From a phage: a DNA stretch of 64,000 bases. Shown here in pieces: positions 7,166 to 59,946 of this stretch. The first letter of the stretch is position 1; each line of letters begins with the position of its first letter. The stretch lies in NCBI GenBank assembly GCA_014685065.1, contig GCA_014685065.1_4092.2; one strand, written 5' to 3'. The notes under the pieces are model-generated. The model worked only from the letters and a program-made list of their open reading frames with translations. It was not told the origin of the DNA and searched no databases. Made by a program: the position numbers and the translations under genes.

Positions 7166-7357
7166 ATGTTGATTTATCAAGGTGATAATATTCGTGTTAT
7201 GCAGCATCCCTACTTACAAATCTTTGATGTGCAGCAGTATATGGAAGGTGATGACCCAAGAACCTATGGTCGTAAGTATGATTACTTCACTGTAAAGCAG
7301 TGTAACAATATTAACGAAGTACGACAATTAGTTAAAGAACTTCAAAACAAAGGTTGA
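7166..7357 (+). CDS. hypothetical protein
   Basis: ATG 7166 just after previous stop; track ORF 7112 overlaps in another frame. Confidence 0.45.
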   Translation: MLIYQGDNIRVMQHPYLQIFDVQQYMEGDDPRTYGRKYDYFTVKQCNNINEVRQLVKELQNKG

Positions 7358-7383
7358 CTTCGGTCAGCCTTTTTTGTTATAAT
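7351..7383 (+). terminator. bifunctional module: terminator hairpin AGGTTGAC-TTCG-GTCAGCCT + T-run, with -35 TTGACT in the stem and -10 TATAAT downstream
   Basis: hairpin 7351-7370, T-run 7371-7375, TATAAT 7378-7383. Confidence 0.65.
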
Positions 7384-7411
7384 TCTCTTAATAAATTAGA
7401 GGATTTTAATT

Positions 7412-7852
7412 ATGTATGTATATCGTTTTGAACTTAAATTTAGTTACATTGAACCTAACTTAGATCCTGCACGAACTGTAGGTCCGTTTGCACGGTATTC
7501 AACCAGATACAGTACTAAAAATGGATTTGACCGTTTGCTCATGACTACACCTTCTCAATTCCAACCTGAACCAACTGAGGATGGGATCTATTCAATCAAA
7601 AGTGGATGGGTATTTGGCTGTCAAAGTTTGAAAGATTTGTTCAGATTCTTCACTATGGACTTAGGTAAATTGCATCGTGCTGGGTTTGCTATATCTGTAT
7701 ATGAAGTTCCAGACCACCATGTAGACATTGGTCGTAATCAGGTTCAGTACTATTGCGGTAGTGCTAAATTAGTTCGTATCATGTCAGTTAAGGAAGCAAA
7801 GGATGAGTTCCGACAAAGTAAAAGAGAAACACATGAGGTAATATATGGATAA
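7412..7852 (+). CDS. hypothetical protein
   Basis: RBS GAGG; downstream of module. Confidence 0.55.
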   Translation: MYVYRFELKFSYIEPNLDPARTVGPFARYSTRYSTKNGFDRLLMTTPSQFQPEPTEDGIYSIKSGWVFGCQSLKDLFRFFTMDLGKLHRAGFAISVYEVPDHHVDIGRNQVQYYCGSAKLVRIMSVKEAKDEFRQSKRETHEVIYG

Positions 7853-8189
7853 AACTCAAATAGAATTAAAGAAATTTGTTTCATTCTATCTTCCTGATGA
7901 CCCACGTAATTCACAAAAAGATATTGAATATTATAATATCCTATCTAAACAGTTAATGAGAAAGTTTCAACAGTGTTTAACTATATTCAATACAGATGGA
8001 AGACGTAGATACCGAATCGTTTCAATGAATGATGAAAACGCAAATTTCTTTGATTACGATGTGGTTTTTAGAGCATATAATGATGATCGTATAAAATTAA
8101 ATTATGATCAAATTATACTTGACCTGAATGTTATATGTGTTATAATCACTCACGTAGCCGAACTTAATGGTTTTAAAGAATGGTATTGA
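7845..8189 (+). CDS. hypothetical protein
   Basis: overlapping coupled ORF. Confidence 0.5.
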   Translation: MDKTQIELKKFVSFYLPDDPRNSQKDIEYYNILSKQLMRKFQQCLTIFNTDGRRRYRIVSMNDENANFFDYDVVFRAYNDDRIKLNYDQIILDLNVICVIITHVAELNGFKEWY

Positions 8190-8203
8190 ATAAAGGATAA
8201 CAT

Positions 8204-8470
8204 ATGAAGCTTAAATTACAATATAATGGATTTACTTTACGTAATGATACTGAATTTATTAATCGTTCTCCTGGTGCTGAACTGTTTTTACGAGAGATGA
8301 ACATTCCTTTCATCATTACTACAGTGGGCGACCGTGAAGTTCTACAATACGCAGAGCATCCGATCATTGATGTTCCTTGGTACTCTGAGCATATGTACAT
8401 GGATATGGCACGTCGCTACAACTGTAAGTTCGTAGTTGAAGGTGATAAAATTACAGTCGAATTTAAATAA
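8204..8470 (+). CDS. hypothetical protein
   Basis: RBS AGGA before ATG. Confidence 0.5.
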   Translation: MKLKLQYNGFTLRNDTEFINRSPGAELFLREMNIPFIITTVGDREVLQYAEHPIIDVPWYSEHMYMDMARRYNCKFVVEGDKITVEFK

Positions 8471-8481
8471 GGTAAATTAAA

Positions 8482-8775
8482 ATGATCAGTACTTCAGTTA
8501 ATGAAAGCATCGTCGCTGACGTAGAAATGGTTAAAGAATGTGCAGATGAAACTCTTCGTGATATGTACATTAATGATTTAATTACTGAATACGGTAGTCG
8601 TGGTGTACACGAATTTATTCGTTTAAGTGGAGAGTTGATGAAAAATCGAATTCGTATGAAGCTTAACGTACATCCAAAAGCATGGGCATTTACATTAAAA
8701 TACGCAGAAGATATTGTGAATTTGCGTCGAACTGAAGTATATGAACGTTTACACAATGGTATGTTAGATAAATGA
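8482..8775 (+). CDS. hypothetical protein
   Basis: ORF with upstream AAGG RBS. Confidence 0.5.
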   Translation: MISTSVNESIVADVEMVKECADETLRDMYINDLITEYGSRGVHEFIRLSGELMKNRIRMKLNVHPKAWAFTLKYAEDIVNLRRTEVYERLHNGMLDK

Positions 8776-8827
8776 TTGTAAAATAGGAATTCTTAAATGA
8801 ATTCCTTTTTGTTTATAAGGTATAGTA

Positions 8828-9049
8828 ATGAAATATATAGTACTTGTACTGATATTATTCAGTACTGTTGTAAGTGCTAAACAAAAAGAATATGTTAAAT
8901 GTATAAATTACGAAGAGAAATATGTTGAAACATATAAAAAAAGTATAATTAAAAACGTTTCTATTACTGACCGAGGAACAATCATTGTACTTAAAAATGG
9001 GTTAATTATGTTATATAAACCACACGTTAAATGTGAAATTATTAATTGA
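8828..9049 (+). CDS. secreted hypothetical protein
   Basis: signal peptide MKYIVLVLILFSTVVSA. Confidence 0.5.
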   Translation: MKYIVLVLILFSTVVSAKQKEYVKCINYEEKYVETYKKSIIKNVSITDRGTIIVLKNGLIMLYKPHVKCEIIN

Positions 9050-9056
9050 GGAAAAT

Positions 9057-9629
9057 ATGAATCGTAAAGGTCGTTTTAAAGTATCAAAGAAAAATAAGAG
9101 TTCTAGGTTTAAACCTATAGTATTAACAGGTAAATCTAATAAAGAATTGACTGCACTTAGTAAAAAAATAATTTCATCTAAGATTGAAGTATCATACGTA
9201 AATTCATTAAAATATATGAATGTAAAACCACTAGACAAACTCATTTCACTTATATTTCAGCGTAATGATTTTGAGATATCAGTAGATGATTATAGAGCCT
9301 ATAATACTGGTTTCATTAATGTTACTTGTAGTAAAGAACTAACTGAGTTGGAAAACTTGTCATGTATAGTAAATCTAGATAAAGGTGTAGTGAAATACAA
9401 TTTTGTACATTTTACTAATATTAATAATGGCATGGGTGTACAATCCAGACCTATAGTACCTACATGTGATGTTACTAAATTAGCAAAGCTCAATGATGAA
9501 GAATATTTTCAAGAAAGTATTGTGACTGAGCATTTAGATGATATAATAGCTACTTACAAAGAGTGCATATGGGTGTTGAATGCTATAAAGCCTAAATTGT
9601 GTTTAATGAATATTGTTCGTGATTTATGA
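9057..9629 (+). CDS. hypothetical protein
   Basis: ATG 9057 after RBS GAGGAAAAT; track GTG start 9033 overlaps previous gene. Confidence 0.55.
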   Translation: MNRKGRFKVSKKNKSSRFKPIVLTGKSNKELTALSKKIISSKIEVSYVNSLKYMNVKPLDKLISLIFQRNDFEISVDDYRAYNTGFINVTCSKELTELENLSCIVNLDKGVVKYNFVHFTNINNGMGVQSRPIVPTCDVTKLAKLNDEEYFQESIVTEHLDDIIATYKECIWVLNAIKPKLCLMNIVRDL

Positions 9630-9642
9630 ATGGGGAATCGTA

Positions 9643-10585: not shown

Positions 10586-10592
10586 TAAAAAT

Positions 10593-10626
10593 GGGTTGAC
10601 TAAGGTCAGCCCTTTGTTGTATCATA
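10593..10626 (+). terminator. variant terminator module (GGGTTGAC-TAAG-GTCAGCCC)
   Basis: hairpin 10593-10613; weaker T tract. Confidence 0.5.
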
Positions 10627-10654
10627 ACTTCTCAATATAACTGAGGTATCATAT

Positions 10655-10768: not shown

Positions 10769-10776
10769 CAAAATAA

Positions 10777-10813
10777 GGTTGACTTCGGTCAGCCTTTTCT
10801 TTATACTATAAAT
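10777..10813 (+). terminator. bifunctional terminator/promoter module
   Basis: AGGTTGACTTCGGTCAGCCT + TTTTCTTT, then TATACT/TATAAAT. Confidence 0.6.
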
Positions 10814-10830
10814 ATAGACATAGAGAAAAA

Positions 10831-12375: not shown

Positions 12376-12384
12376 TAAAACTAA

Positions 12385-12418
12385 AGGTTGACTTCGGTCA
12401 GCCTTTTTTTGTAAATAC
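12385..12418 (+). terminator. bifunctional terminator/promoter module
   Basis: AGGTTGACTTCGGTCAGCCT + T7 run. Confidence 0.65.
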
Positions 12419-12445
12419 AAAAGAGGAATTAAGAAGAGGATTACA

Positions 12446-12697
12446 ATGAAAAAATATATTATATTTGGAATTGTATTATTTTCCAGTACTGCTTATGGTG
12501 CAGATTATCATTGCTCCGTAGCAAGGCAGGATTTCAGAAATGGGGAGTTCTATACTACCTCATACACAAAAGGAATAATACACGACACCGACAGAACTAT
12601 TGGATTTAATGCGTTTGACAACAAAGATTCATATACTTCAGGTATACTATCTGAGCGTAAGACGGATGTACTCGGAATAGAAAAAGAGTTTCGGTGA
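12446..12697 (+). CDS. secreted hypothetical protein
   Basis: signal peptide MKKYIIFGIVLFSSTAYGA; RBS AGAGGA. Confidence 0.5.
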   Translation: MKKYIIFGIVLFSSTAYGADYHCSVARQDFRNGEFYTTSYTKGIIHDTDRTIGFNAFDNKDSYTSGILSERKTDVLGIEKEFR

Positions 12698-12707
12698 TTC
12701 CGTGGCA

Positions 12708-13025
12708 ATGTGTAATGACATTGAAAGTACTAAAAAAATTTATTATAATAATGAAATAAATTATCGTTTTCATAATTTAACCACAAATAAAAGTTTACTA
12801 TTTTACAATTGTAAAGAAGTAAAACTCCCACCAGACAATAGCTGTAACCCAACAAACCCATCACCAGCACAATGTAATACTCCAACTGAACCTGATACCA
12901 ATAAAAAAGACAAAGATAAAAAAGAAGACAAAAAACCATTAAAAGATAAAAGGAAAGATAAAAAACCTAATCCGTTTAAAAATAATAAACCAGCACAACC
13001 CGATATGACGTGTAAAATAAAATAA
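12708..13025 (+). CDS. Lys/Pro-rich hypothetical protein
   Basis: ORF with KDKDKKEDKK low-complexity tail; start uncertain (GTG 12702 or ATG 12708). Confidence 0.4.
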   Translation: MCNDIESTKKIYYNNEINYRFHNLTTNKSLLFYNCKEVKLPPDNSCNPTNPSPAQCNTPTEPDTNKKDKDKKEDKKPLKDKRKDKKPNPFKNNKPAQPDMTCKIK

Positions 13026-13034
13026 GGATATATA

Positions 13035-13454
13035 ATGAAAAAGATTTTTTTAAGTATTATTTTAGTACTTTTTAGTTTTAATGTATATGCAGCAGATGCT
13101 AAACAGGTTGCTAATACAGTAAAAGATGTTATAGTAGACAATGCTCCTACCTTAGAGGAAATTGGGGTAAAAACTTGTGATATAGTAATATATAATTTAG
13201 TTAATGATGAACGAGTTATGTTGAATACGTATGAACAAGTAGTCCCATTGGTTGAATCTGGTGATGCTTTTAGCTTTACATATAAAGTTAAATTAACAGG
13301 AGGGGTTGAAGTTAATCTTGACATTGATACCGCTTCAGTACTAAAAGATAAACTAGGATATGTGTTCAATCGTATTCGTGAAGAAGGTCATCTTAAGTAT
13401 GTTTATGAAAGTAAAATACTAAAACGTGCAATAGTTATAGAAAACTGTAAATGA
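13035..13454 (+). CDS. secreted hypothetical protein
   Basis: signal peptide MKKIFLSIILVLFSFNVYAA; RBS AAGGA. Confidence 0.55.
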   Translation: MKKIFLSIILVLFSFNVYAADAKQVANTVKDVIVDNAPTLEEIGVKTCDIVIYNLVNDERVMLNTYEQVVPLVESGDAFSFTYKVKLTGGVEVNLDIDTASVLKDKLGYVFNRIREEGHLKYVYESKILKRAIVIENCK

Positions 13455-13461
13455 TAATAAA

Positions 13462-13495
13462 AGGGTTGACTTCGGTCAGCCTTTTTTGTTATGAT
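13462..13495 (+). terminator. bifunctional terminator/promoter module
   Basis: AGGGTTGACTTCGGTCAGCC + T6, then TATGAT. Confidence 0.65.
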
Positions 13496-13523
13496 GTTGA
13501 TATTAACTACAGAGGATAAAGTA

Positions 13524-14165
13524 ATGACTAAGCAAGAAATATTCAAAACTTTAATTGACATTTTGCGTCCATCAAAAACTCGTTGTGCGATGGAGTTTGA
13601 TATTCCTTATGCTGAACGCGTAATCTTTCCACAAGTTAAAGCTGCTGGACTTACTTTGCTTGGAATGGGGATGTACTCTGTAGTAGTTGAACATAAAAAC
13701 TATCCTGGACGAGCATTTAAAGTAACCACTTCACGCTGGGATGGTTTTCGTGCTTATGCAAAGTACTGCATTGAAAACGCAGGAACCAAGTTTCTTCCAG
13801 TGATCTACAGTGCCAACGAACAAGGAAACTTTGGATGGTATGAGATGGACAAGTACTATCCTATAATTAAACAAAAAAATAATTATGATGACTTTGTTAG
13901 TACTAAAATTGGAGATTTGTATTCGTATGCACATGCTGGTCAGTACGCAACTTCAGTGAATGATATGCGTGGAAATTCTGAAGAGATTGCTATTGCAACG
14001 GTCGCTGCTAACATCATGAAAGAGTTTCACGGGCGTTTTGTACCAGACATTCATTCAAGTAATGTAATGATGGATAAAGATGGGAATGTATTCATTACTG
14101 ATCCTCTTTCGTGTGATGTGCGTAGAGAAATACCAATTACTGAAGAAGATCCAGTTTTTTATTGA
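13524..14165 (+). CDS. protein-kinase-like fold protein (atypical mini-kinase)
   Basis: Gly-loop-like LGMGMYSVVV, AFKV, catalytic-loop-like DIHSSNVMM, ITDP; start set to ATG 13524 after AGAGGA. Confidence 0.5.
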   Translation: MTKQEIFKTLIDILRPSKTRCAMEFDIPYAERVIFPQVKAAGLTLLGMGMYSVVVEHKNYPGRAFKVTTSRWDGFRAYAKYCIENAGTKFLPVIYSANEQGNFGWYEMDKYYPIIKQKNNYDDFVSTKIGDLYSYAHAGQYATSVNDMRGNSEEIAIATVAANIMKEFHGRFVPDIHSSNVMMDKDGNVFITDPLSCDVRREIPITEEDPVFY

Positions 14166-50867: not shown

Positions 50868-50881
50868 TATTAAAAAATAGT

Positions 50882-50940: not shown

Positions 50941-50962
50941 ACTAACAGAGAGAGAAAACAAA

Positions 50963-51145: not shown

Positions 51146-51153
51146 AAAATAGT

Positions 51154-51212: not shown

Positions 51213-51229
51213 ACTAAGAGGAAAACAAA

Positions 51230-51448: not shown

Positions 51449-51540
51449 AAATATTATCACAGTACTATTGACAACTGCCGATAGTACTGGCATAATAACT
51501 TTTATCAACAGTAGTTAACTTAACCTAAGAGAGAAACATC

Positions 51541-51684: not shown

Positions 51685-51789
51685 GAATATAGCCCACTGG
51701 TTAACGCTGGTGGGCTTTAATCATTTACCCTATACAATGCCAGTACTAAACCGTTTATCTCGTTAGAATGCGTTACAGGACGTTTAACA

Positions 51790-51987
51790 ATGATTAGCAT
51801 GAAATCAGTACAAAAACAAATTGATACATTATCAAAAATTAAACGTAAACAGTACTCCTTAGAATATACAATCAATGGTAACTATCATCTAATGAAAGAA
51901 AATAATTTTATAGTCATTGATGAATCATTGCAAATCATTAGTATAGTACTGAAAGCATTAATCAATGACAGAAAAAAGTTAAAATAA
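51790..51987 (+). CDS. hypothetical protein
   Basis: RBS AGGA. Confidence 0.45.
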   Translation: MISMKSVQKQIDTLSKIKRKQYSLEYTINGNYHLMKENNFIVIDESLQIISIVLKALINDRKKLK

Positions 51988-51991
51988 TCTA

Positions 51992-52020
51992 TTGACAATA
52001 TTATCCAGTACTGGCATAAT
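51992..52020 (+). promoter_or_regulatory. promoter TTGACA ... GCATAAT
   Basis: attgacaatattatccagtactggcataat. Confidence 0.5.
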
Positions 52021-52079
52021 ACTTACATCAAGACGAGAACGTCACTAACCCATAGGGTGCACAAATGTAACTGTATAAT

Positions 52080-52120
52080 ATTGATCAAAAAATGATCTGA
52101 TCAATACTTGATCAATTTGC
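52080..52120 (+). promoter_or_regulatory. cluster of three TTGATCA half-palindromes, candidate operator
   Basis: ttgatcaaaaaatgatctgatcaatacttgatcaatttg. Confidence 0.4.
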
Positions 52121-52318
52121 GTAAAGTAGTATAATTCTATGCAGTTGGTTAGACGAAAGGTTATGATTAGTAGTGGAAGTGTATAAAAATTTTCATGGTG
52201 TGGTGATCCGCACATATGGGGATGAATATGTCGTGTCGTATGGATTGGAAAAAGTAAGAACAAGTAATATACTTGTCGCGTTACAGTACTATAGTAATTT
52301 TATAATGAGGTTAAAATA

Positions 52319-52576
52319 ATGGCTGTAGGATTCACGAAAGATGGGGCCGAGCAAGACGAGATTAACGCAGTGATTCAGGCCGCTGTTAACCACGCTAGAA
52401 CGCAAATTAACGCACAAATAGAATCACTGATACATTGCCTCGACTGCGGCGATAAAATCCCTGAGAATCGCCGCCAGGCAGTTAAGGGGTGTAAGTACTG
52501 CATCACTTGCCAGGCTGATCATGATAGCATATTCAAACGCAATCCCCGTAATTGTTGGCATAGATCTATGAGATAA
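52319..52576 (+). CDS. TraR/DksA-family C4 zinc-finger protein
   Basis: CLDCGDKIPENRRQAVKGCKYCITCQ matches the CxxC-(17)-CxxC TraR/DksA pattern. Confidence 0.65.
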   Translation: MAVGFTKDGAEQDEINAVIQAAVNHARTQINAQIESLIHCLDCGDKIPENRRQAVKGCKYCITCQADHDSIFKRNPRNCWHRSMR

Positions 52577-52581
52577 AAAGT

Positions 52582-52610
52582 ATTGACAGTGCTGTTAGTT
52601 AGTGTATAAT
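52582..52610 (+). promoter_or_regulatory. promoter TTGACA-17-TATAAT
   Basis: TTGACA 52582-52587, TATAAT 52605-52610. Confidence 0.55.
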
Positions 52611-52639
52611 ATTTTATATCTTAACTGAGGATTGAAATC

Positions 52640-52996
52640 ATGGGTATACAACATATCACGCGTACTACAGACAATGGTGAGATCACTGGCTATCAAGTAC
52701 AAGGCAAAGTAGCACAATTGCAGTACTGGTTTGTTAAACGTGGCATTGTTGCACCAGATCTTGATTATAATCGTGTAGCGTTTATTGATTCTCTTTATGT
52801 TGATCCCGATAATCGCGGTAACGGTGAAGGTACTGAATTAATGAATGCCTTTATTGATGCCGCCGATGATTCAGATTGTATCATCTTAGAATGCGATACG
52901 GGAGAAGATAACGCATTTAATCTTAAAGAATGGTATGAAAGTTTTGGTTTTGAAGTGCTGATGGACTGCGAATATCCTATAATGATTTTATCCTAG
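52640..52996 (+). CDS. putative small GNAT-like acetyltransferase
   Basis: motif-A-like DNRGNGEGTELM, then WYESFGF. Confidence 0.4.
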   Translation: MGIQHITRTTDNGEITGYQVQGKVAQLQYWFVKRGIVAPDLDYNRVAFIDSLYVDPDNRGNGEGTELMNAFIDAADDSDCIILECDTGEDNAFNLKEWYESFGFEVLMDCEYPIMILS

Positions 52997-52999
52997 TAC

Positions 53000-53058
53000 T
53001 TGCAATTAGTTTTAAGTACTGTATAATAGTTTACATGAAGGGGAGAATAGTTCTCCCC
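53000..53058 (+). promoter_or_regulatory. PeSL-like module
   Basis: TTGCAA 53000-53005, TATAAT 53022-53027, hairpin 53040-53058. Confidence 0.65.
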
Positions 53059-53075
53059 ACTACAAGGAAAGACAA

Positions 53076-53264
53076 ATGCAAAACTTATCAAGTATTTTAG
53101 TACAAGATGATTTCGGTAATCCTGGAAGTGCTATCATTGTTCGGGGTAATAAAGCAACATTTGTTATTGCTGGTGGACCTGTACAGCGTAGCATTAAAAA
53201 CAATGCAGTTACAATCAATAATGTTCGCTATCGCTTGGATAAAGAATTGATTCATAAACTGTAA
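53076..53264 (+). CDS. hypothetical protein
   Basis: RBS AAGGAAA. Confidence 0.5.
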   Translation: MQNLSSILVQDDFGNPGSAIIVRGNKATFVIAGGPVQRSIKNNAVTINNVRYRLDKELIHKL

Positions 53265-53291
53265 TATTAATTTAATAGAGGATAAAAATAA

Positions 53292-53615
53292 ATGTATATT
53301 CATACTACTATCACAAAAGAAGTTCGTTGTCAATTCGAAAGTATCCCTGGTGTATGTTTCATTACAGGCACTTTCTCACCTGGTGACCGTGATAATCCAG
53401 TACTGTTACAGTTACGCCATCCATTATGGGATAAAGCATTTGATCTGCCGTTGAATGAATTCGCAACCACTGCTGATAAGTACATTAAAAATATTCGCGA
53501 GAATGATTGCCTATTCATTAATGCTTTTAGTGATGCCGCGTTAAGTGAGATCCATGCTGTATTGGTTGCAATCATGGAATCAATGGAGAAAACTATATTC
53601 AAACAAGGTGAATAA
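53292..53615 (+). CDS. hypothetical protein
   Basis: RBS AGAGGA. Confidence 0.55.
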   Translation: MYIHTTITKEVRCQFESIPGVCFITGTFSPGDRDNPVLLQLRHPLWDKAFDLPLNEFATTADKYIKNIRENDCLFINAFSDAALSEIHAVLVAIMESMEKTIFKQGE

Positions 53616-53621
53616 AAACTA

Positions 53622-53680
53622 TTGACAATGTAATCTAGTACTGTATAATAGTTTACATGAAGGGGAGAAATGATTCTCCC
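53622..53680 (+). promoter_or_regulatory. PeSL-like module
   Basis: TTGACA 53622-53627, TATAAT 53645-53650, hairpin GGGGAGAAATGATTCTCCCC. Confidence 0.65.
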
Positions 53681-53698
53681 CACTAAGAGGAAAGAAAC

Positions 53699-53911
53699 AT
53701 GCAAGGTCAACTAATCGTTCGTAAATGGTCTGATACTAACGAAAAACCGTGGGATGTTCAATATATCGGACCGGACGGTGTTTCACGTTATCAACCTGGC
53801 GTAACGCATAGTACTGAGCAATATGCCGCCGCTCACCGTGAACGCCTGTTAGAATCTATGAAACAGGGATTCTGTGAAAAATTCATTCAAGATCATTGGC
53901 TGAAAGATTAA
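53699..53911 (+). CDS. hypothetical protein
   Basis: RBS AGAGGAAA. Confidence 0.55.
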   Translation: MQGQLIVRKWSDTNEKPWDVQYIGPDGVSRYQPGVTHSTEQYAAAHRERLLESMKQGFCEKFIQDHWLKD

Positions 53912-53928
53912 TAGAAGGAGTACAGCTT

Positions 53929-54021
53929 ATGCAAATGAATCCGATGATTGTTGTGTTAGCTGTACTTATGGTCATTCATGCCATCGTAGAAGTACTAACA
54001 CAATCAGGAGTAATACAATGA
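53929..54021 (+). CDS. 30-aa hydrophobic peptide
   Basis: hand-called: RBS AGGAG, ATG 53929. Confidence 0.3.
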   Translation: MQMNPMIVVLAVLMVIHAIVEVLTQSGVIQ

Positions 54022-54188
54022 TCCAGGTGGAATTATCAGTACTGAAAGATCTGTTTTATCGGTTAGGCACTACTGGCGAATACCCTAAAGGGGATACTGC
54101 TAAACTATACATTGCATTGGATGTATGGCAACGTAATGAACTGGCTAACGCCTGGCGTAAAGGTAAATCAGAGGGGATTGCAGCATGA
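54018..54188 (+). CDS. small hypothetical protein (56 aa)
   Basis: hand-called: ATGA overlap. Confidence 0.35.
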   Translation: MIQVELSVLKDLFYRLGTTGEYPKGDTAKLYIALDVWQRNELANAWRKGKSEGIAA

Positions 54189-54334
54189 AAGAATTCTTAT
54201 TCGAAGTAGTGTTCCAGGGCGTAGGAAGTAACCAACTGATTCGATCAAGTGGTTACAATGTTAACCAGGCATGGAATAACATTAAACAAATGTACCCGAA
54301 CGCTATCACATATCGCAACCCAAAACAAGTTTAA
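54185..54334 (+). CDS. small hypothetical protein (49 aa)
   Basis: hand-called: ATGA overlap; followed by terminator module. Confidence 0.35.
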   Translation: MKEFLFEVVFQGVGSNQLIRSSGYNVNQAWNNIKQMYPNAITYRNPKQV

Positions 54335-54348
54335 AAAGAATTAAAAAA

Positions 54349-54381
54349 GGGATTGACTCCGGTCAGTCCCTTTGCTATTAT
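54349..54381 (+). terminator. bifunctional terminator/promoter module (GGGATTGACTCCGGTCAGTCCC variant)
   Basis: hairpin 54349-54370 + TTTGCTATTAT. Confidence 0.65.
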
Positions 54382-54481
54382 ATACGCATAGAAACAAATC
54401 AGCCCACAGGGTGCATAAATGTATCTATTATATGCTGGTGGCTAGTACTATCAAGTACTGAAAACTATTTTTAAAAAGTAC

Positions 54482-54509
54482 TTGCAAAGTATCACGATAA
54501 GCGTATAAT
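54482..54509 (+). promoter_or_regulatory. promoter TTGCAA-16-TATAAT upstream of structured element copy B
   Basis: TTGCAA 54482-54487, TATAAT 54504-54509. Confidence 0.55.
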
Positions 54510-54512
54510 GTT

Positions 54513-54592
54513 TTACATCAGGACGGGGAACGAAACAAGTAACTCCCCGTTAAGTAGTCCAGGAGTAAGACATACGAAAACCTCCCCTGATA
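54513..54592 (+). ncRNA. structured RNA element, copy B
   Basis: perfect ACGGGGA/TCCCCGT stem plus second GGAG/CTCC hairpin; see copy A at 44181. Confidence 0.35.
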
Positions 54593-54599
54593 AAATAGT

Positions 54600-54628
54600 T
54601 TGACAATACCAAGTAAACGAGTATAATA
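54600..54628 (+). promoter_or_regulatory. promoter TTGACA-17-TATAAT
   Basis: TTGACA 54600-54605, TATAAT 54623-54628. Confidence 0.55.
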
Positions 54629-54657
54629 CTTACATCAACCACAAAGAGGAATACAAA

Positions 54658-54858
54658 ATGAAACATTTTACTTTCGGTGTAGTAGGCTTTACAGTATCCA
54701 GCGGCGTTTATAAATCAGAACGCGGTGCTAAAAATGCAGCAAGTCGGGCGTATGGTTCACAGCGTGACTTACAGGTCGGTTATATTAGTAACATTAATAA
54801 CATGTTTATTCCTGTTTCACAGCGTAAAGCGGGTAACATGAAATGGGAAACAATTTGA
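54658..54858 (+). CDS. hypothetical protein
   Basis: RBS AGAGGAA. Confidence 0.5.
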   Translation: MKHFTFGVVGFTVSSGVYKSERGAKNAASRAYGSQRDLQVGYISNINNMFIPVSQRKAGNMKWETI

Positions 54859-54867
54859 TAAAATAGT

Positions 54868-54926
54868 TTGACAATAGTTTTTAGTACTGTATAATAGTTT
54901 ACATCAAGTGGGGAATAGTTCCCCAC
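54868..54926 (+). promoter_or_regulatory. PeSL-like module
   Basis: TTGACA 54868-54873, TATAAT 54890-54895, hairpin GTGGGGAATAGTTCCCCAC. Confidence 0.65.
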
Positions 54927-54947
54927 CTAACAAAGAGAGAAATTAAA

Positions 54948-55223
54948 ATGCGGATTCTACTGACAGCTAACGAAATCGAGCAAGTACTGACTACTAACCT
55001 GGAAGACTGGAAACGTGATGCAGATATCCAGGCGGTGCAATGGCTCAATGATAAGTTAACGCCGGATGATTTAAGTAAGATTGTAGATCCACAATTCTAT
55101 GAAGATATTCACGACACGGCTTTAAGCGTCGAGGATGTACTTGATAAGCACTACATTGATATTGATTTGCAGGTTTACGGTCGTAAAAACTTTATCACTA
55201 TTCACGACATTTATAATAATTAA
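54948..55223 (+). CDS. acidic hypothetical protein
   Basis: RBS AGAGAGA. Confidence 0.55.
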   Translation: MRILLTANEIEQVLTTNLEDWKRDADIQAVQWLNDKLTPDDLSKIVDPQFYEDIHDTALSVEDVLDKHYIDIDLQVYGRKNFITIHDIYNN

Positions 55224-55226
55224 GTA

Positions 55227-55286
55227 TTGACAAAGTATCTTAGTACTGTATAATAGTTTACATCAAGGCAGGGGAATGGTTCCCCT
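55227..55286 (+). promoter_or_regulatory. PeSL-like module
   Basis: TTGACA 55227-55232, TATAAT 55249-55254, hairpin AGGGGAATGGTTCCCCT. Confidence 0.65.
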
Positions 55287-55310
55287 CCTAACTAAAAGAG
55301 AGAAATTAAA

Positions 55311-55634
55311 ATGACTATGATCCTTACCCAGAAAGTAGAAATGAAAATTGTAACTTCCTTTGACATTAAAGTTAATCGGTGGACTGATAGCCACGGCAAT
55401 ACTTACCACTCATGCTACGTGTCTGCATTGATTGGTGACCGCTGGGAAGACCTGGGACATGAAACCTTTACTTACGGTTACGGTACACAAGGCGAATACA
55501 CGGGCTTGGAGATCATTAAAGAAACTGTAATAGGTTTCAACCCGAAAGAGAAAGTACTACACAGAATTGAGGATGAGATCAACAAAGAAATTACAGTTCG
55601 TTACTACGATGTAAAACGTAAGAAAGACATGTAA
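55311..55634 (+). CDS. hypothetical protein, paralog of 48735 gene
   Basis: GNTYHS ... YGYG ... VKRKKDM. Confidence 0.55.
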   Translation: MTMILTQKVEMKIVTSFDIKVNRWTDSHGNTYHSCYVSALIGDRWEDLGHETFTYGYGTQGEYTGLEIIKETVIGFNPKEKVLHRIEDEINKEITVRYYDVKRKKDM

Positions 55635-55656
55635 TAGAATCCATTTAAAGTACTAT

Positions 55657-55685
55657 TTGACATTGCCCAGATAGTACTTTATAAT
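55657..55685 (+). promoter_or_regulatory. promoter TTGACA-17-TATAAT flanked by AGTACT
   Basis: agtactatttgacattgcccagatagtactttataat. Confidence 0.55.
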
Positions 55686-55733
55686 AGACTCTAACTTGTA
55701 GTACTAATTAACTTAACTAATAGGATGTACACC

Positions 55734-56129
55734 ATGATTACTAAATTCTTCGCTACCCGTGAACAAGCTCGCATCGTTGCTCGTGAAGAAGGTGAAACAT
55801 TTAAAGACATGGGCAAAGATGCACCGAAAGGACAACGCTGGGCGGTACAGTTCAAAGAGATCTCTGATATTGTGAATTCACCTGAGCCTGTACTTACTGA
55901 AGCAGAACTGAAGAAAGCTCAAGAACTGGCTGAAGTACTGAACGCTCAAGATGACTTCTTGGAAGGTTCTGATATTGAAGTTACAGTTAACGCAAATGCA
56001 TGGACTCACGCGGATCACCTGGCAAACCTTAAGCGTCCAAGTGAACTGATTCGTAACCAGAAAGAGATCCGTCATGACCGTAAAGGAAACCGTGTAACAG
56101 TATACAGTAAACGCCGCCAGGTTATCTAA
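55734..56129 (+). CDS. hypothetical protein, paralog of 43763 gene with insertion
   Basis: FATREQARIVAREEGETFKDMG ... RHDRKGNRVTVYS. Confidence 0.55.
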   Translation: MITKFFATREQARIVAREEGETFKDMGKDAPKGQRWAVQFKEISDIVNSPEPVLTEAELKKAQELAEVLNAQDDFLEGSDIEVTVNANAWTHADHLANLKRPSELIRNQKEIRHDRKGNRVTVYSKRRQVI

Positions 56130-56150
56130 TAACTTTGCAGTACTAACAAC

Positions 56151-56176
56151 ACGGCGGGAATAGTTCCCGCCTTTTT
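56151..56176 (+). terminator. intrinsic terminator
   Basis: GGCGGGAATAGTTCCCGCC + T6. Confidence 0.7.
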
Positions 56177-56192
56177 TATAGGATAAACTAAA

Positions 56193-56447
56193 ATGATGAA
56201 GGTACAACTATCTAAAGATAATATCTTGCGGGTACACTATAAAGCACCACAGAGAATCATCACAAAGGCCGTACAGCTTGCTAATGAGTTTATTAATGGT
56301 AGTCTATTACCCAGGAAGTTAAGCAACGGGAAACTACGTGTTATCGATGTAGACACTAACAATAGAATAGTAATTGAGAGTACTGGAAAAATTAATCTAT
56401 ATGAACACCAACAATACAATAAAAAAATAAAACTAATATCACGTTGA
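56193..56447 (+). CDS. hypothetical protein
   Basis: RBS AGGA. Confidence 0.5.
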   Translation: MMKVQLSKDNILRVHYKAPQRIITKAVQLANEFINGSLLPRKLSNGKLRVIDVDTNNRIVIESTGKINLYEHQQYNKKIKLISR

Positions 56448-56471
56448 CAGTACTCAATTGTTTTAGTATTA
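56444..56471 (+). promoter_or_regulatory. promoter TTGACAGTACTCAA ... TATTAT (homologous to 56722)
   Basis: two genes with unrelated products share this promoter/leader. Confidence 0.5.
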
Positions 56472-56503
56472 TGTATCTATACCAACACAGAGAGAGAAAC
56501 AAA

Positions 56504-56722
56504 ATGAAATTATCTAAAATCGAAAAGAAAACTATTGATGAAGCAGTGAAGCACGGTTATACCTTTCGTAATGATTCACACTTCACCAGTTTTCAACAGG
56601 GAAACCGTACCATCAAAAAACTCATTGATAAAGGTTTACTCACTAAGGTTGATAACGGGAACGGTGTAGAATATCAACCGACAGAAGACGCATTATCACT
56701 AAAGAAATATTCTATTATCTAA
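56504..56722 (+). CDS. hypothetical protein
   Basis: ATG 56504 after AGAGAGA; track N-terminus is a leader read-through. Confidence 0.5.
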   Translation: MKLSKIEKKTIDEAVKHGYTFRNDSHFTSFQQGNRTIKKLIDKGLLTKVDNGNGVEYQPTEDALSLKKYSII

Positions 56723-56750
56723 TTGACAGTACTCAAATGTTTTAGTACTA
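56722..56750 (+). promoter_or_regulatory. promoter TTGACAGTACTCAA ... TACTAT
   Basis: homologous to 56444. Confidence 0.5.
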
Positions 56751-56779
56751 TGTACGCATACCAACACGGGGAAAACAAA

Positions 56780-57022
56780 ATGATTACTTTAGAAAAACGT
56801 ATCAAAGAGACTACAACGCTGGTGGAACTGTTAACCGTTCTTAAATGCCGGGTAACTCCATTCAGTACACCGGACTTTATCAACATGGTGGACGTTAACG
56901 GTCGCTATCGTATTGCGGTCGAACAAGGTACGGCAAAAGTATTCAGTACTAAAAATACGCGTGAAGTATTCCACGCAGTAAGTACGAAAAAAGTAGTTGC
57001 CATTGATAGTAAAGTACTGTAA
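56780..57022 (+). CDS. hypothetical protein
   Basis: ATG 56780 after GGGGAAAA. Confidence 0.5.
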   Translation: MITLEKRIKETTTLVELLTVLKCRVTPFSTPDFINMVDVNGRYRIAVEQGTAKVFSTKNTREVFHAVSTKKVVAIDSKVL

Positions 57023-57053
57023 TATAGTTTCATTAACTCAAGGAGTCAACACA

Positions 57054-57638
57054 ATGCGTAACTATACTAAATTCATCCGTTCACTTCATGCAATGGAAAC
57101 CAACAAAGAGATCCTTTCAGCTTGTCGGTTAGCTGGACTGGAGATCGTCGGTGCGGGTTCTTCCCGTATTGTATTCGCTTTAAATGATCGGTTAGTGATT
57201 AAGGTCGCGAATTGTGATGCGGGTGTAGAACAAAATGAAACTGAATGTAAGGTATGGAATTTTTTAGATTATGACCGTCCGCACCTTAAACAGTTCTTTG
57301 CCAAGGTGCATATGCATTTATGCGATCCTGATAATCTGTTTATTGTTATGGATCGTTTGAGTACTGCAAGCAAAGGCAGTGTAAAGCACGTAACCGCATG
57401 TAATGAGTTAAAGTACAATATTAAACGTAACACTATTGAACGCCATCACCATTTCGCTGATGCTCTCAATCACGTTGATGATACATTATCCACACTAACG
57501 ATAAGAGATATCAGAAAACAGAATATCGGCCAGGATCGCAACGGCTTGATTAAAGTACTTGATTACGGTTTAACCCGCAATATCTGGAATCAGTACTATA
57601 AAAAACGTGATGTTAACGCGATAACTATAACACGATAA
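57054..57638 (+). CDS. protein-kinase-like protein (atypical Ser/Thr-kinase fold)
   Basis: Gly-loop VGAGSSRIVF, VIKVA, catalytic-loop-like IRDIRKQNIG, DFG-like VLDYG; ATG 57054 after AAGGAG. Confidence 0.55.
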   Translation: MRNYTKFIRSLHAMETNKEILSACRLAGLEIVGAGSSRIVFALNDRLVIKVANCDAGVEQNETECKVWNFLDYDRPHLKQFFAKVHMHLCDPDNLFIVMDRLSTASKGSVKHVTACNELKYNIKRNTIERHHHFADALNHVDDTLSTLTIRDIRKQNIGQDRNGLIKVLDYGLTRNIWNQYYKKRDVNAITITR

Positions 57639-57652
57639 AAAAGATTAAAAAA

Positions 57653-57685
57653 GGGATTGACTCCAGTCAGTCCCTTTGCTATTAT
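57653..57685 (+). terminator. bifunctional terminator/promoter module
   Basis: GGGATTGACTCCAGTCAGTCCC + TTTGCTATTAT. Confidence 0.65.
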
Positions 57686-57779
57686 ATATTCATTGAGAGA
57701 TAACTCACTGACCCATAGGGTGCGGAAGTGTATCTATTATATAAGTATTCAGTACTGAAAACTATTTGATAAAAAGTAC

Positions 57780-57840
57780 TTGCAAACTATCTTAATGAGC
57801 GTATAATGTTTTATATCGAGAGGGGGAAATGGTTCTCCCT
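57780..57840 (+). promoter_or_regulatory. PeSL-like module
   Basis: TTGCAA 57780-57785, TATAAT 57802-57807, hairpin AGGGGGAAATGGTTCTCCCT. Confidence 0.65.
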
Positions 57841-57862
57841 GGTACTAAAAGGAATCAAAACG

Positions 57863-58084
57863 ATGGCTACTATGACCTGCGTTCACGCTTCAAATCTTCT
57901 GAATGATGCAGCATTTAAAGCAGGTGAAGAATATCAATGCTATCGGGATGAAAATAAAAAAGTTTTCGTCGTTGATGCTAACGGTTTCCATATTGAATTG
58001 CAATCCGGCTTCACTGGTTTAAATGGTAAATCAGTATGGGGCGTTAATGATGATAATGGTCTTTATCACTTTATCCGTAATTAA
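57863..58084 (+). CDS. hypothetical protein
   Basis: ATG 57863 after AAGGAA. Confidence 0.5.
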   Translation: MATMTCVHASNLLNDAAFKAGEEYQCYRDENKKVFVVDANGFHIELQSGFTGLNGKSVWGVNDDNGLYHFIRN

Positions 58085-58087
58085 GTA

Positions 58088-58146
58088 TTGACAAAGTATA
58101 TCAGTACTGTATAATAGTTTACATCAAGGGGAGAATAGTTCTCCCC
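58088..58146 (+). promoter_or_regulatory. PeSL-like module
   Basis: TTGACA 58088-58093, TATAAT 58110-58115, hairpin GGGGAGAATAGTTCTCCCC. Confidence 0.65.
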
Positions 58147-58168
58147 ACCAATAAAAGGAAACAAAATT

Positions 58169-58441
58169 ATGTCTAGCTACTCCGCTACTATGATCATTAA
58201 AGATATGAACGGTAATCCTACTTCTGCTGGTGGATCATTTGGAAACATTAACTTAGATGGTCGGTTATCAATTGAATCAGCCATCAATGCAGCGAAAGAA
58301 GTTTTTAAGAATGAATGCACTGTAAGTAAGCTGGATTATATGGGATTCGCTATCGAGAAAACTAATCGTTTTGTGAACTACAAAAATCCACTGATGATTG
58401 ATACTAACCTGAAAGCTAACGAAGTGGAATACTTATTATGA
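58169..58441 (+). CDS. hypothetical protein
   Basis: RBS AAAGGAAA. Confidence 0.55.
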   Translation: MSSYSATMIIKDMNGNPTSAGGSFGNINLDGRLSIESAINAAKEVFKNECTVSKLDYMGFAIEKTNRFVNYKNPLMIDTNLKANEVEYLL

Positions 58442-58629
58442 CAGTTGAAGAAGTTAAAAAAGTACTGGCAGTACTACGCTATCATAATCATTGTAAGGTG
58501 AAGAATGATCCTGATTATGTTGATTCATCCCTGGAGGAAGACACCTTAAACGCGATAAGCTATATGCAAACATTAGCAAAGCGTATGACCGAAAAGAATA
58601 GGCCGGACTATATCGGAAATAAAATTTAA
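58438..58629 (+). CDS. hypothetical protein
   Basis: ATGA overlap with upstream gene. Confidence 0.5.
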   Translation: MTVEEVKKVLAVLRYHNHCKVKNDPDYVDSSLEEDTLNAISYMQTLAKRMTEKNRPDYIGNKI

Positions 58630-58635
58630 AAAGTA

Positions 58636-58698
58636 CTTGCATTGTAGTTAGATTAACGTATAATGTTTTATATCGAGAGGGGGAAATGGTTTCCCCTC
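58636..58698 (+). promoter_or_regulatory. PeSL-like module
   Basis: TTGCAT, TATAAT 58659-58664, hairpin GAGGGGGAAATGGTTTCCCCTC. Confidence 0.65.
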
Positions 58699-58716
58699 AA
58701 GTCCAGGAGATACACC

Positions 58717-58980
58717 ATGAACACTATCGAAATCACTATCAATGCACACGTATACGACAACGTAGTACTGCAAACTACTATGACCGCTAATGATACCAGT
58801 ACTTTGCGGAATATCGTTATTAGTTCAGTATGTGCCGCTATCGGTGATGTTGCCCTTGAAAATGCAAAACACGTCAACGATGCCTTTACGATGTGCAAAC
58901 GTGATAACTCAAAACATATCATCTGCGAAGGTTACGGCGGTGTAGAATACAATGTTTATATGAAAAAAGTACTTGCATAA
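58717..58980 (+). CDS. hypothetical protein
   Basis: ATG 58717 after AGGAG; last codons overlap next promoter. Confidence 0.5.
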   Translation: MNTIEITINAHVYDNVVLQTTMTANDTSTLRNIVISSVCAAIGDVALENAKHVNDAFTMCKRDNSKHIICEGYGGVEYNVYMKKVLA

Positions 58981-59029
58981 TAACTAAAACAAAGTATAAT
59001 GTTTTGCATAGGGGGAGATATCCTCCCCC
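58973..59029 (+). promoter_or_regulatory. PeSL-like module
   Basis: TTGCAT 58973-58978, TATAAT 58995-59000, hairpin GGGGGAGATATCCTCCCCC. Confidence 0.65.
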
Positions 59030-59048
59030 ACTAATAAGGAGTACTAAA

Positions 59049-59273
59049 ATGGCTAACTTTGATGAACTGATGCGGGAAGTAGCTACCCTGGCAGAAGAGA
59101 AGAAATCATTCGATTCTATATATAACACCGCTTACAGTGATTCAGTACTGGCATGTACTCAGGATCAAAAAGATGAACTGATCGCCACCTATCATGAAGC
59201 ATGGAAGTATTACCGCCAATGGGAGAAAGAAGAAAGCGAGTCTACCATCAACGGCATCAATAATCTAATCTAA
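59049..59273 (+). CDS. hypothetical protein
   Basis: ATG 59049 after AAGGAG. Confidence 0.5.
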   Translation: MANFDELMREVATLAEEKKSFDSIYNTAYSDSVLACTQDQKDELIATYHEAWKYYRQWEKEESESTINGINNLI

Positions 59274-59291
59274 AGTTTTATTTCAGTACTA

Positions 59292-59320
59292 TTGACAATG
59301 CGTGATAGTACTGATGTGAT
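59292..59320 (+). promoter_or_regulatory. promoter-like TTGACA flanked by AGTACT
   Basis: agtactattgacaatgcgtgatagtactgatgtgataac. Confidence 0.4.
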
Positions 59321-59347
59321 AACTTTACTAACTAAAGGGGAAACATA

Positions 59348-59605
59348 ATGGAACAGTTCACACAATATCGGGTAAATCCTCAAGCTATGGCCTACGTAGA
59401 AGACCATAAAACGTTACCAGTACTAACACCAATTAAAGGCCATATCTATCGTGCTATGCAGTGGAATAACGCCTATAATGGCTATAAAGCGGTATCCGCT
59501 GCAATGTACTTAGGGGATGGCGAATGGTTTGATCCAAATAATCCTGGTGCACTCGATAGTACTGAAAAAATGACATGGGCCGACTATATCGAAGATATCT
59601 CATAA
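59348..59605 (+). CDS. hypothetical protein
   Basis: RBS AAGGGGAAA. Confidence 0.5.
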   Translation: MEQFTQYRVNPQAMAYVEDHKTLPVLTPIKGHIYRAMQWNNAYNGYKAVSAAMYLGDGEWFDPNNPGALDSTEKMTWADYIEDIS

Positions 59606-59612
59606 AAACTAT

Positions 59613-59673
59613 TTGACAGTACTACAAGATAATGTATAATGTTTTACATAGAGCGGGGGAATAGTTCTCCCGC
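59613..59673 (+). promoter_or_regulatory. PeSL-like module
   Basis: TTGACA 59613-59618, TATAAT 59635-59640, hairpin GCGGGGGAATAGTTCTCCCGC. Confidence 0.65.
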
Positions 59674-59693
59674 ACCTTTAGGAGTAAAACATT

Positions 59694-59894
59694 ATGTCAA
59701 TCGCTAACGAATTGGTTGCAGTACTGAATGAAGCAAAAGCCAACTGCATCGATGTACAGATAAAAGAGCTTGGCAATGGCTTGATCGGCTGTACTTGTTC
59801 CGTGCAAACGGCTACCGATTATCGGGAAGTGGAATCACTCGAATCACTGGTACGGTATATTAAAATCCTGGTAGAAGATTGGAGAATCATCTAA
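59694..59894 (+). CDS. hypothetical protein
   Basis: RBS AGGAG. Confidence 0.5.
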   Translation: MSIANELVAVLNEAKANCIDVQIKELGNGLIGCTCSVQTATDYREVESLESLVRYIKILVEDWRII

Positions 59895-59913
59895 CAAAAA
59901 AGAATAAAAAAAA

Positions 59914-59946
59914 GGGATTGACTCCGGTCAGTCCCTTTGCTATTAT
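59914..59946 (+). terminator. bifunctional terminator/promoter module
   Basis: AAAGGGATTGACTCCGGTCAGTCCCTTTGCTATTAT. Confidence 0.65.

Follow-up and report, generated by a model that had tools for sequence, protein, structure and literature searches.

What does a hairpin do that recurs, always in the same orientation, between the genes of a jumbo coliphage? We addressed this question in a phage DNA stretch of 64,000 nucleotides (nt) (NCBI GenBank assembly GCA_014685065.1, contig GCA_014685065.1_4092.2; the whole stretch is hereafter the window), which is, judged by similarity searches, DNA of an Asteriusvirus (121Q/G17-like) phage. A preliminary description had noticed about 13 copies of a hairpin module with a T-run, and had proposed that every copy could end one transcript and start the next. 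All expectations that this dual reading sets at the level of sequence were borne out (RNA folding, covariation, -10 enrichment and placement), and we put at about 80% the probability that the unit is a PeSL-type cassette, predicted to act as an intrinsic terminator when it is RNA and as a sigma-70 promoter when it is DNA, a prediction that draws on its sequence and on the elements of phages RB49 and phi1. PeSLs are strong sigma-70-like early promoters combined with effective terminator stem-loops, which sometimes overlap the -35 box (Arbiol et al. 2010, PMC2839356).

Census and anatomy of the module

Searching with a 20-mer (GGGTTGACTTCGGTCAGCCC, at most three mismatches) gave 11 matches, all on the + strand, compared to none in 100 shuffles, and a looser TTGAC...GTCAR search brought in the copy at 57657 (n = 12; copies are named here by the first base of TTGAC). 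A covariance model built from the 12 window copies themselves, run unfiltered on both strands of the whole window, scored 12 full modules at 49-67 bits, and its next-best matches, at 25 bits or less, were the same sites read on the reverse strand. The module was thereby recovered at every position listed in the preliminary description, including the loop-variant copy at 57653, and the list proved complete, with 12 full modules and one truncated copy (a left arm at 18540), + strand throughout. None of the curated Rfam covariance models reached its gathering threshold in the whole window. Searching the window for AARGG...CCYTT hairpins returned only the modules and some ribosome-binding regions, and therefore supplied no independent control set.

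In the alignment of the 12 copies, the module spans about 47 nt and consists of an A-rich stretch, (G/A/T)GG, TTGAC, a 4-nt loop, GTCAG, CC(C/T/A), a T-run, (TGn) and a -10 box; the A-rich stretch lies upstream of the GGG and has the fewest A's in copies 10596 and 50314. Two types were distinguished: type A, the reference form (TTGAC at 7354, 10596, 10779, 12388, 13466, 17961, 19243 and 20657; + strand), and type B (TTGAC at 50314, 54353, 57657 and 59918; + strand), all four copies of which have the -10 TATTAT at a 17-nt spacer. Several dimensions first given for the unit held for only some of its copies. The 9-bp stem is found in the four copies at 50-60 kb, the G+C core being 8 bp in most; the UUCG tetraloop is present in eight copies and replaced by UAAG in one, UCCG in two and UCCA in one; and the distance of about 18 nt that separates the -35 from the -10 applies to six copies, five others having 17 nt and copy 12388 only a weak -10. 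A longer form is indeed common to three copies (17961, 19243 and 20657), at about 47-50 identical nt and not 55. Individual copies are as follows, with open reading frames abbreviated as ORFs and lengths in amino acids (aa).

7344-7386, + strand: module 1, type A; hairpin 7349-7372, -35 TTGACT 7354-7359; 61.5 bits, -13.4 kcal/mol; -10 TATAAT 7378-7383, spacer 18, TGn; next ATG at 7412
10586-10628, + strand: module 2, type A, UAAG loop; hairpin 10593-10612, -35 at 10596; 49.3 bits, -14.0 kcal/mol; -10 TATCAT 10620-10625, spacer 18; 37-aa ORF next
10769-10815, + strand: module 3, type A; hairpin 10775-10796, -35 at 10779; 60.4 bits; -10 TATACT 10802-10807, spacer 17; upstream of a 514-aa virion-protein gene
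12378-12424, + strand: module 4, type A; hairpin 12383-12406, -35 at 12388; 52.6 bits; weak -10 GTAAAT 12411-12416; left edge of a three-ORF cassette absent in the relative UE-S1
13456-13498, + strand: module 5, type A; stem up to 12 bp, -35 at 13466; 57.4 bits; -10 TATGAT 13490-13495, spacer 18, TGn; right edge of the UE-S1 indel
17951-17993, + strand: module 6, type A long form; 13-bp stem, -19.0 kcal/mol, -35 at 17961; 65 bits; -10 TATAAT 17985-17990; upstream of denV
18536-18556, + strand: truncated copy; left arm and loop only (AAAGGGTTGACTTCGGT), without right arm, T-run or -10
19233-19275, + strand: module 7, type A long form; -35 at 19243, -10 TATAAT 19267-19272; 61.4 bits
20647-20689, + strand: module 8, type A long form; -35 at 20657, -10 TATAAT 20681-20686; 65.1 bits
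50304-50350, + strand: module 9, type B; hairpin 50307-50334, outer pair U-A, -35 at 50314; 67.1 bits, -15.9 kcal/mol; -10 TATTAT 50337-50342, spacer 17, TGn
54343-54389, + strand: module 10, type B, UCCG loop; stem GGGAUUGAC/GUCAGUCCC with an extra A-U pair; 66.2 bits, -19.5 kcal/mol; -35 at 54353, -10 TATTAT 54376-54381; three U after the stem
57647-57693, + strand: module 11, type B, UCCA loop; -35 at 57657, -10 TATTAT 57680-57685; 64.8 bits, -17.6 kcal/mol
59908-59954, + strand: module 12, type B; -35 at 59918, -10 TATTAT 59941-59946; 66.2 bits

The same bases as RNA hairpin and as predicted promoter

The terminator side was assessed by folding nine + strand copies as RNA, which gave -12.4 to -19.5 kcal/mol (z -4 to -6; 0 of 200 shuffles as good), with A·U pairs lengthening the stem of the folded copies to 8-13 bp and an extra A-U stem pair in three of the four type B copies. 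The truncated copy at 18540 does not fold (-1.7 kcal/mol, z +0.9). Reverse strands, of which two were folded, were about 6 kcal/mol weaker because the T:G pair (U·G on the + strand) turns into an A·C mismatch. Across the 12-copy alignment, 97% of pair cells are standard pairs, and shifting the 3' partner by one column cuts pairing to 55-61%. Three outer stem pairs show compensatory changes (G-C, A-U, U-A) and the five inner TTGAC/GTCAG pairs, U·G included, are invariant in the 12 copies, a pattern of covarying outer and frozen inner pairs that we also found in 73 distinct copies from other phages. A U-run directly follows the stem, though the type B tails are short, with three to four U before a G. 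The module combines a G+C-rich stem of at least 5 bp, a loop of 3-8 nt and a U-rich tail, the parts by which intrinsic terminators are recognised, and terminator calls made with ARNOLD cover module copies in the record of Escherichia phage vB_EcoM_G17 (G17). It shares with a canonical intrinsic terminator the G+C-rich stem, the tetraloop, the 3' U-run and an upstream A-tract able to pair with the U-run, but differs in having a stem sequence that is fixed (TTGAC) rather than free to covary and a -10 box at promoter spacing.

These data also bear on the idea that the units are promoters whose inverted repeat is the operator of a DNA-binding regulator, with no role for the hairpin as RNA. The repeat does overlap the -35 box, a classic operator position, and the phage encodes many unknown early proteins. 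As DNA, however, the repeat is imperfect (T opposite G), yet the + strand RNA has the U·G pair in all 12 copies here and in 66 of 73 elsewhere; most copies carry the RNA-stabilising UUCG loop, a U-run comes directly after the repeat, the changes in the outer pairs are compensatory rather than conserved in sequence, and the unit always lies right behind a stop codon. We regard the operator as the least probable of the explanations considered.

On the promoter side, the -35 TTGACT is present in all 12 copies. A -10 box, defined as at least five of six matches to TATAAT with A2 and T6, stands at a spacer of 16-19 nt in 11 of them, compared to 4.1% of all window positions (binomial P ~6e-15), and the TGn of an extended -10 precedes it in 9/12 copies against a background of 0.44%. 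TTGACT, a 17-18-nt spacer, TGnTATAAT and an A-rich upstream stretch are also what an extended -10 sigma-70 promoter has; the difference is that the spacer and -35 of the module encode an RNA hairpin and U-run. The frozen TTGAC arm together with the covarying outer pairs is as expected under a double constraint, on sequence for sigma-70 and on pairing for RNA. The predicted start lies downstream of the hairpin, and by this geometry the module's own transcript would therefore lack the terminator.

Could these be ordinary intrinsic terminators, their TTGAC and TATAAT-like hexamer being by-products of the genome's AT-richness and of the shared ancestry of the copies? Annotation treats them as such: G17 and other GenBank records that annotate terminators list the hairpins as terminators only, as does the supplement of the phage CBB paper for identical hairpins (Torf515/518/520). 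Across the genomes of 185,579 bacterial and archaeal species, moreover, the exact 24-mer hairpin turns up only seven times, and most of these contexts have no -10 at the distance expected of a promoter; copy 12388 has no good -10 of its own. By-products would not account for the enrichment of correctly spaced -10 boxes and of TGn given above, nor for a TTGAC arm that never covaries while the outer pairs do. Among 131 distinct contexts elsewhere, a set biased by the way it was collected, the UUCG loop is found in 71, the wobble G in 103, a spacer of 17 or 18 nt in 103, TG in 84 and a -10 with at least five of six matches in 87, so that -10 and TG are kept despite different loops and flanks. A Shine-Dalgarno (SD) sequence and ATG at a fixed downstream distance likewise argue for a promoter, and we consider the terminator-only explanation very improbable.

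Placement is consistent with the composite promoter-terminator. All 12 modules are intergenic, between co-directional genes, and the minus-strand block at 25-41 kb has none. In type A, 9-12 nt separate the end of the upstream stop codon from TTGAC, and in type B 9-23 nt, the exception being type A module 7354, where the TGA stop of ORF 7112-7357 lies within the -35 TTGACT itself (7355-7357). In all eight type A copies an SD sequence and start codon follow 52-59 nt past TTGAC (the start codon for copy 13466 was taken from the G17 annotation). Type B units have no SD or ATG at their 3' end; in 4/4 copies the unit is followed by about 100 nt of conserved non-coding leader, which leads up to a second promoter, and RNAalifold found no supported structure and no compensatory pairs in this leader. 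Applied to phage 121Q, the covariance model found 12 modules in 62.5 kb of early DNA homologous to the two + strand regions of the window and none in 100 kb with terminase, replication, nucleotide-metabolism and structural genes (P ~1e-5). Module neighbours have typical early functions or are ORFans; a T7 gp0.7-like kinase gene (13491-14165), for example, follows module 5.

A further motif, rCCCAyAGGGTGCr...GTATCT, occurs downstream of the -10 in all four type B modules and at some other promoters, within an ORF-less stretch of about 100 nt that ends at the next promoter, and is also found downstream of modules in other viral contigs. It may represent a short RNA, a leader or a site for a protein. 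Its positions in the window are:

44085, 50362, 52042, 54396, 57705 and 59961, + strand: rCCCAyAGGGTGCr...GTATCT motif
42380, 42595 and 46179, reverse strand: the same motif

Cassettes and indels at the modules

The long-form trio brackets two cassettes, as the preliminary description had it for denV and a nuclease region: the first holds denV (Pyr_excise, 5.9e-15) with two small ORFs, and the second a 78-aa ORF with a 372-aa protein (ORF 19528-20646) that matches HNH/homing-endonuclease PHROGs (7e-24). At a distance of just 183 nt from each other, modules 10596 and 10779 form a minimal cassette around one 37-aa ORF.

Much of this DNA has close relatives. Window positions 17000-22000 match Escherichia phages G17 and Sharanji at 99.1% over the whole of this segment and many other Asteriusvirus genomes piecewise (megablast), and positions 7-32333 are collinear with G17 at 99.4% (local blastn); the 40-64 kb region is much more mosaic, its best records giving 53-87% coverage at ~90% identity. 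We compared the window with seven loci (G17, 121Q, PBECO4, JP4, UE-S1, phAPEC6 and CMSTMSU), and a comparative search for insertions bounded by the module, proposed earlier as a check, came out positive, twice in UE-S1 and at boundaries in other relatives. Two stretches of the window are missing from UE-S1: 12410-13446 (three ORFs, flanked by modules 12388 and 13466) and 19304-20643 (the 78-aa ORF and the endonuclease-like gene, between modules 19243 and 20657). Both empty sites hold one chimeric module, whose upstream flank is that of the left copy and whose downstream flank is that of the right copy. This outcome, with one chimeric element where the cassette is missing, is what has been depicted for RB49/phi1 when PeSLs mediate excision or insertion (PMC2839356).

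Other relatives vary at the same places. In 121Q, PBECO4 and phAPEC6 the endonuclease cassette is swapped for other genes, with the right boundary 7-11 nt before the TTGAC of 20657. At module 19243, JP4 carries 639 inserted nt and keeps a degenerate half of the module; it also has an HNH endonuclease gene placed exactly between the upstream stop codon and module 17961 (4652-5055 of the JP4 locus, corresponding to window 17952). Of this HNH gene, phAPEC6 (3407-3494 of its locus) retains just a few dozen bases from either end, the remnant of a decayed homing-endonuclease insertion. Insertions or remnants in JP4, phAPEC6 and CMSTMSU abut module 17961 at -7 to -18, and the truncated module copy lies within a 391-nt segment absent from PBECO4 and phAPEC6. 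Indel boundaries in JP4, 121Q, PBECO4, phAPEC6 and CMSTMSU fall at -7 to -18. Over window 12.0-24.4 kb, 6 of 16 breakpoint clusters lie inside module units (P = 7e-6 under a uniform null).

These indels might instead come from free-standing homing endonucleases in intergenic DNA, with the modules as bystanders, an alternative that concerns the evolutionary role of the units only. It draws on the HNH- and GIY-YIG-type genes in the variable cassettes (the JP4 HNH gene, the phAPEC6 'exonuclease ABC C subunit' and ORF 19528-20646), on the JP4 HNH gene sitting between stop codon and module with no module duplication, and on the modest enrichment that is left (P = 0.038) when breakpoints are confined to gene junctions, the conservative null. 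Both UE-S1 events, however, are clean module-to-module deletions with chimeric modules, and the 12410-13446 deletion showed no endonuclease match among the ORFs searched, which comprised all but the 107-aa ORF. We consider bystander modules rather unlikely, though clearly less so than the terminator-only and operator explanations. A transposon-like reading, of the kind of a miniature inverted-repeat transposable element, was dropped: the units have one orientation, and at the junctions read we saw neither target-site duplications nor, apart from the hairpin itself, terminal inverted repeats.

A second family of repeated regulatory cassettes, with about 25 copies, occupies window 42800-60600 on the + strand. 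Each is built of AAAAAGTACTTGCAA or TTGACA, N16-17, (G)TATAAT, TTTACATC, a hairpin in the 5' untranslated region (for example GGGGAGAATAGTTCTCCCC), an SD sequence and ATG, and the 40-60 kb region contains 12 perfect TTGACA-16/17-TATAAT promoters. Breaks in synteny with 121Q, PBECO4, ELP-22 and phAPEC6 recur at these cassettes:

43352-43438, 45234-45320, 50861-50958, 54847-54944 and 58615-58698, + strand: examples of second-family cassettes
44123, 45288, 45829, 46341, 49847, 50968, 51465, 53614, 54856, 58687 and 60062: breakpoints at second-family cassettes

Small early ORFs (43377-43680, 48784-49079 and 58451-58613) are 81-97% identical at the nucleotide level to unrelated coliphages of ~135-150 kb, as is, in the same identity range, a 39-nt piece of a promoter cassette (45266-45304), which suggests that phage groups have recently exchanged early cassettes.

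Features of the wider genome were also recorded. Asteriusvirus records ELP-22 and BF17 begin at a position matching window ~41305, and matches end at window ~61399 in vB_Ec-M-J (the end of its record), JP4, WPEC3 and WPEC5. Direct terminal repeats of ~21 kb have been reported for the genus (PMC13070987). These record ends and the reported repeats suggest that window 41.3-61.4 kb is a terminal repeat, which the window assembly would then have collapsed. A scan of the window found no tRNA or tmRNA, which rules out a tRNA cluster at 42-64 kb. On the minus strand, window 25400-39000 holds an array of about 10 paralogous genes of ~380 aa each, whose counterparts in relatives carry the annotation RCC1-like or 'DNA condensation' protein; the array's copy content varies among G17, 121Q and PBECO4, and many of the genes are followed by a separate family of terminator hairpins (GCCAGTAC-NNN-GTACTGGC and a T-run).

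The palindrome AGTACT is in 12-fold excess in the window (264 occurrences vs ~22 expected, no shuffle exceeding 37), where GGTACC and CGTACG are absent and CAGTACTG occurs 55 times. Its density is 2.3-3.6 per kb in coding and 8.8 per kb in intergenic DNA, against 0.34 per kb expected, and many window promoters, as well as the minus-strand terminator stems, include it. An enrichment of 4.6-17-fold is also present elsewhere in 121Q and in pieces of RaK2, CBB and GAP32, but nt-1, Brochothrix phage A9 and one IMG/VR contig show none. The literature searched held no explanation for the excess.

Relation to known PeSLs, breadth and proposed role

Promoter and terminator activity of the RB49/phi1 PeSLs has been shown with lacZ reporters, one stem-loop terminating about as well as rrnB T1 and one PeSL driving ~13,000 Miller units; they cluster in hyperplastic regions and bring about modular shuffling (PMC2839356). 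Comeau, Arbiol & Krisch (2014) extended PeSLs to PST/T4 and nt-1/KVP40, giving for nt-1 the stem A3-4G3-loop-C3T3-4 and the promoter TTGYVH-N17-TAWWAT (PMC4122927). The corresponding region of the nt-1 record contains AAAAGGGTTGCTTCGGCAGCCCTTTTTTGTTATTCT and AAAAGGGTTGCACTATGCAGCCCTTTTTAGTATTAT, and its units share with ours A3-4 G3, TTG in the left arm, a UUCG or other small loop, a right-arm G opposite T (U·G), C3 T3-6, TGn, TATTAT, CATC, SD and ATG, as well as an intergenic location in hyperplastic regions adjoining indels. They differ in their -35, which is TTGC(T/A) there and TTGACT here, making the stem here 1-2 bp longer, and in their bearer, a T4-like phage of the Straboviridae there and an Asteriusvirus here; at E<0.001 the nt-1 copies were not picked up by the window covariance model. 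Because the nt-1 architecture is the same, even in its UUCG loop and in the G that faces T, we assign the module on its sequence to the PeSL-type composite promoter-terminators, a known kind, here in a phage group in which it carries a terminator-only annotation.

The likeness to the RB49/phi1 PeSLs is broader: a composite of sigma-70 early promoter and terminator, AT-rich upstream DNA, SD and start codon, one subclass in which the stem overlaps the -35, and cassette loss that leaves one chimeric element. There, polyG/polyC stems occur at five positions relative to the promoter, in contrast to one fixed and highly conserved geometry here; mini-circles were shown for the RB49/phi1 elements. The only descriptive feature of PeSLs that the window does not share is the T4-like myovirus as bearer, which concerns where the element is found and not how it works: Asteriusvirus genomes, of ~350-370 kb, belong to a genus outside the Straboviridae, and by annotation encode homologues of the T4-like gp17, gp41 and gp44. 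In the openly accessible literature searched we found no paper that links PeSLs to Rak2-like or Asteriusvirus phages.

The core of the module is widespread among phages. A 64-nt module query matched 183 phage records, which include RaK2/K64-1, GAP32, CBB, Munch/7t3, Serratia BF and fHe-Yen9, KVP40-like Vibrio phages, Aeromonas T4-likes, and enterobacterial phages of ~150 kb and ~60 kb, and an exact 18-mer was found in 39 IMG/VR stretches. Identical 18- to 34-mers are shared by at least four Rak2-like jumbo genera, Vibrio/Aeromonas T4-likes, the ~150-kb and ~60-kb enterobacterial phages and uncultivated viral contigs. Brochothrix phage A9 (Herelleviridae, with a Gram-positive host) has the core GGGTTGACTTCGGTCAGCCCTTTTGTTATTAT twice, once between a terminase fragment and virion protein genes in co-directional order (NC_015253.1 ~29719-29736, minus strand) and once followed by SD and ATG. 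A host origin was rejected, as the 64-nt module had no match in 5,426 complete E. coli genomes and the 24-mer is rare in bacteria, mostly without a -10. Tentatively, and at odds that we would place below even, the core (GGGTTGAC-UUCG-GTCAGCCC-T4-5-G-N-TATWAT, ~35-45 nt) may be a pan-phage portable junction and not a T4-like speciality, either spread horizontally with the cassettes it flanks as shared homology for exchange, or reached repeatedly as a near-unique minimal overlap of UUCG terminator and extended -10; few positions are free once the TTGAC stem, cUUCGg loop, 17-18-nt spacer and TGn are given.

We propose that in RNA from the upstream gene, the A-tract, GGGUUGAC, UUCG, GUCAGCCC and the U-run would fold as an intrinsic terminator, the transcript ending in the U-run. 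Read as duplex DNA by the host sigma-70 RNA polymerase, the same bases would be a promoter, with the A-tract as an UP-like element, the left arm as the -35 TTGACT, the loop, right arm and T-run as the 17-18-nt spacer, and TGnTATAAT as the extended -10. Transcription would restart ~7 nt past the -10, beyond the hairpin, in a transcript without its own terminator, and each early gene or small gene group would be an insulated unit with its own signals. The overlap could also let polymerase released at the U-run re-initiate immediately at the promoter beneath. Because copies of the ~50-nt unit are direct repeats, they would recombine homologously and so delete, insert or swap the intervening cassettes. 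We infer the termination and initiation events themselves, the early timing and the recombination pathway.

Several observations weigh against this composite, exchange-promoting PeSL. Copy 12388 has GTAAAT as its only -10, and type B copies may terminate weakly, as just three to four U follow their stems. The stems of the reporter-tested RB49/phi1 PeSLs differ in sequence from those of the window modules, and a literature search found no transcript-end data for this phage or genus. At the level of exchange, the enrichment of breakpoints under the junction-only null is modest, type B modules were not breakpoints in four comparators while other repeated promoter cassettes (42-64 kb) were, and homing endonucleases, which are able to move by themselves, account for part of the variation, several indels involving them.

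Read as PeSL-type cassettes, features annotated only as terminators become a transcription map, with 12 predicted boundaries of early units in 64 kb, each with a strong host-type promoter, and the mosaic early regions of Asteriusvirus genomes receive a simple account. For phage engineering, the module would be a compact natural insulator of ~47 nt, predicted to end one transcript and start the next. The PeSL idea is thereby extended beyond T4-like phages, which raises the question of whether one short regulatory sequence may serve as a common currency for gene exchange among unrelated phages.

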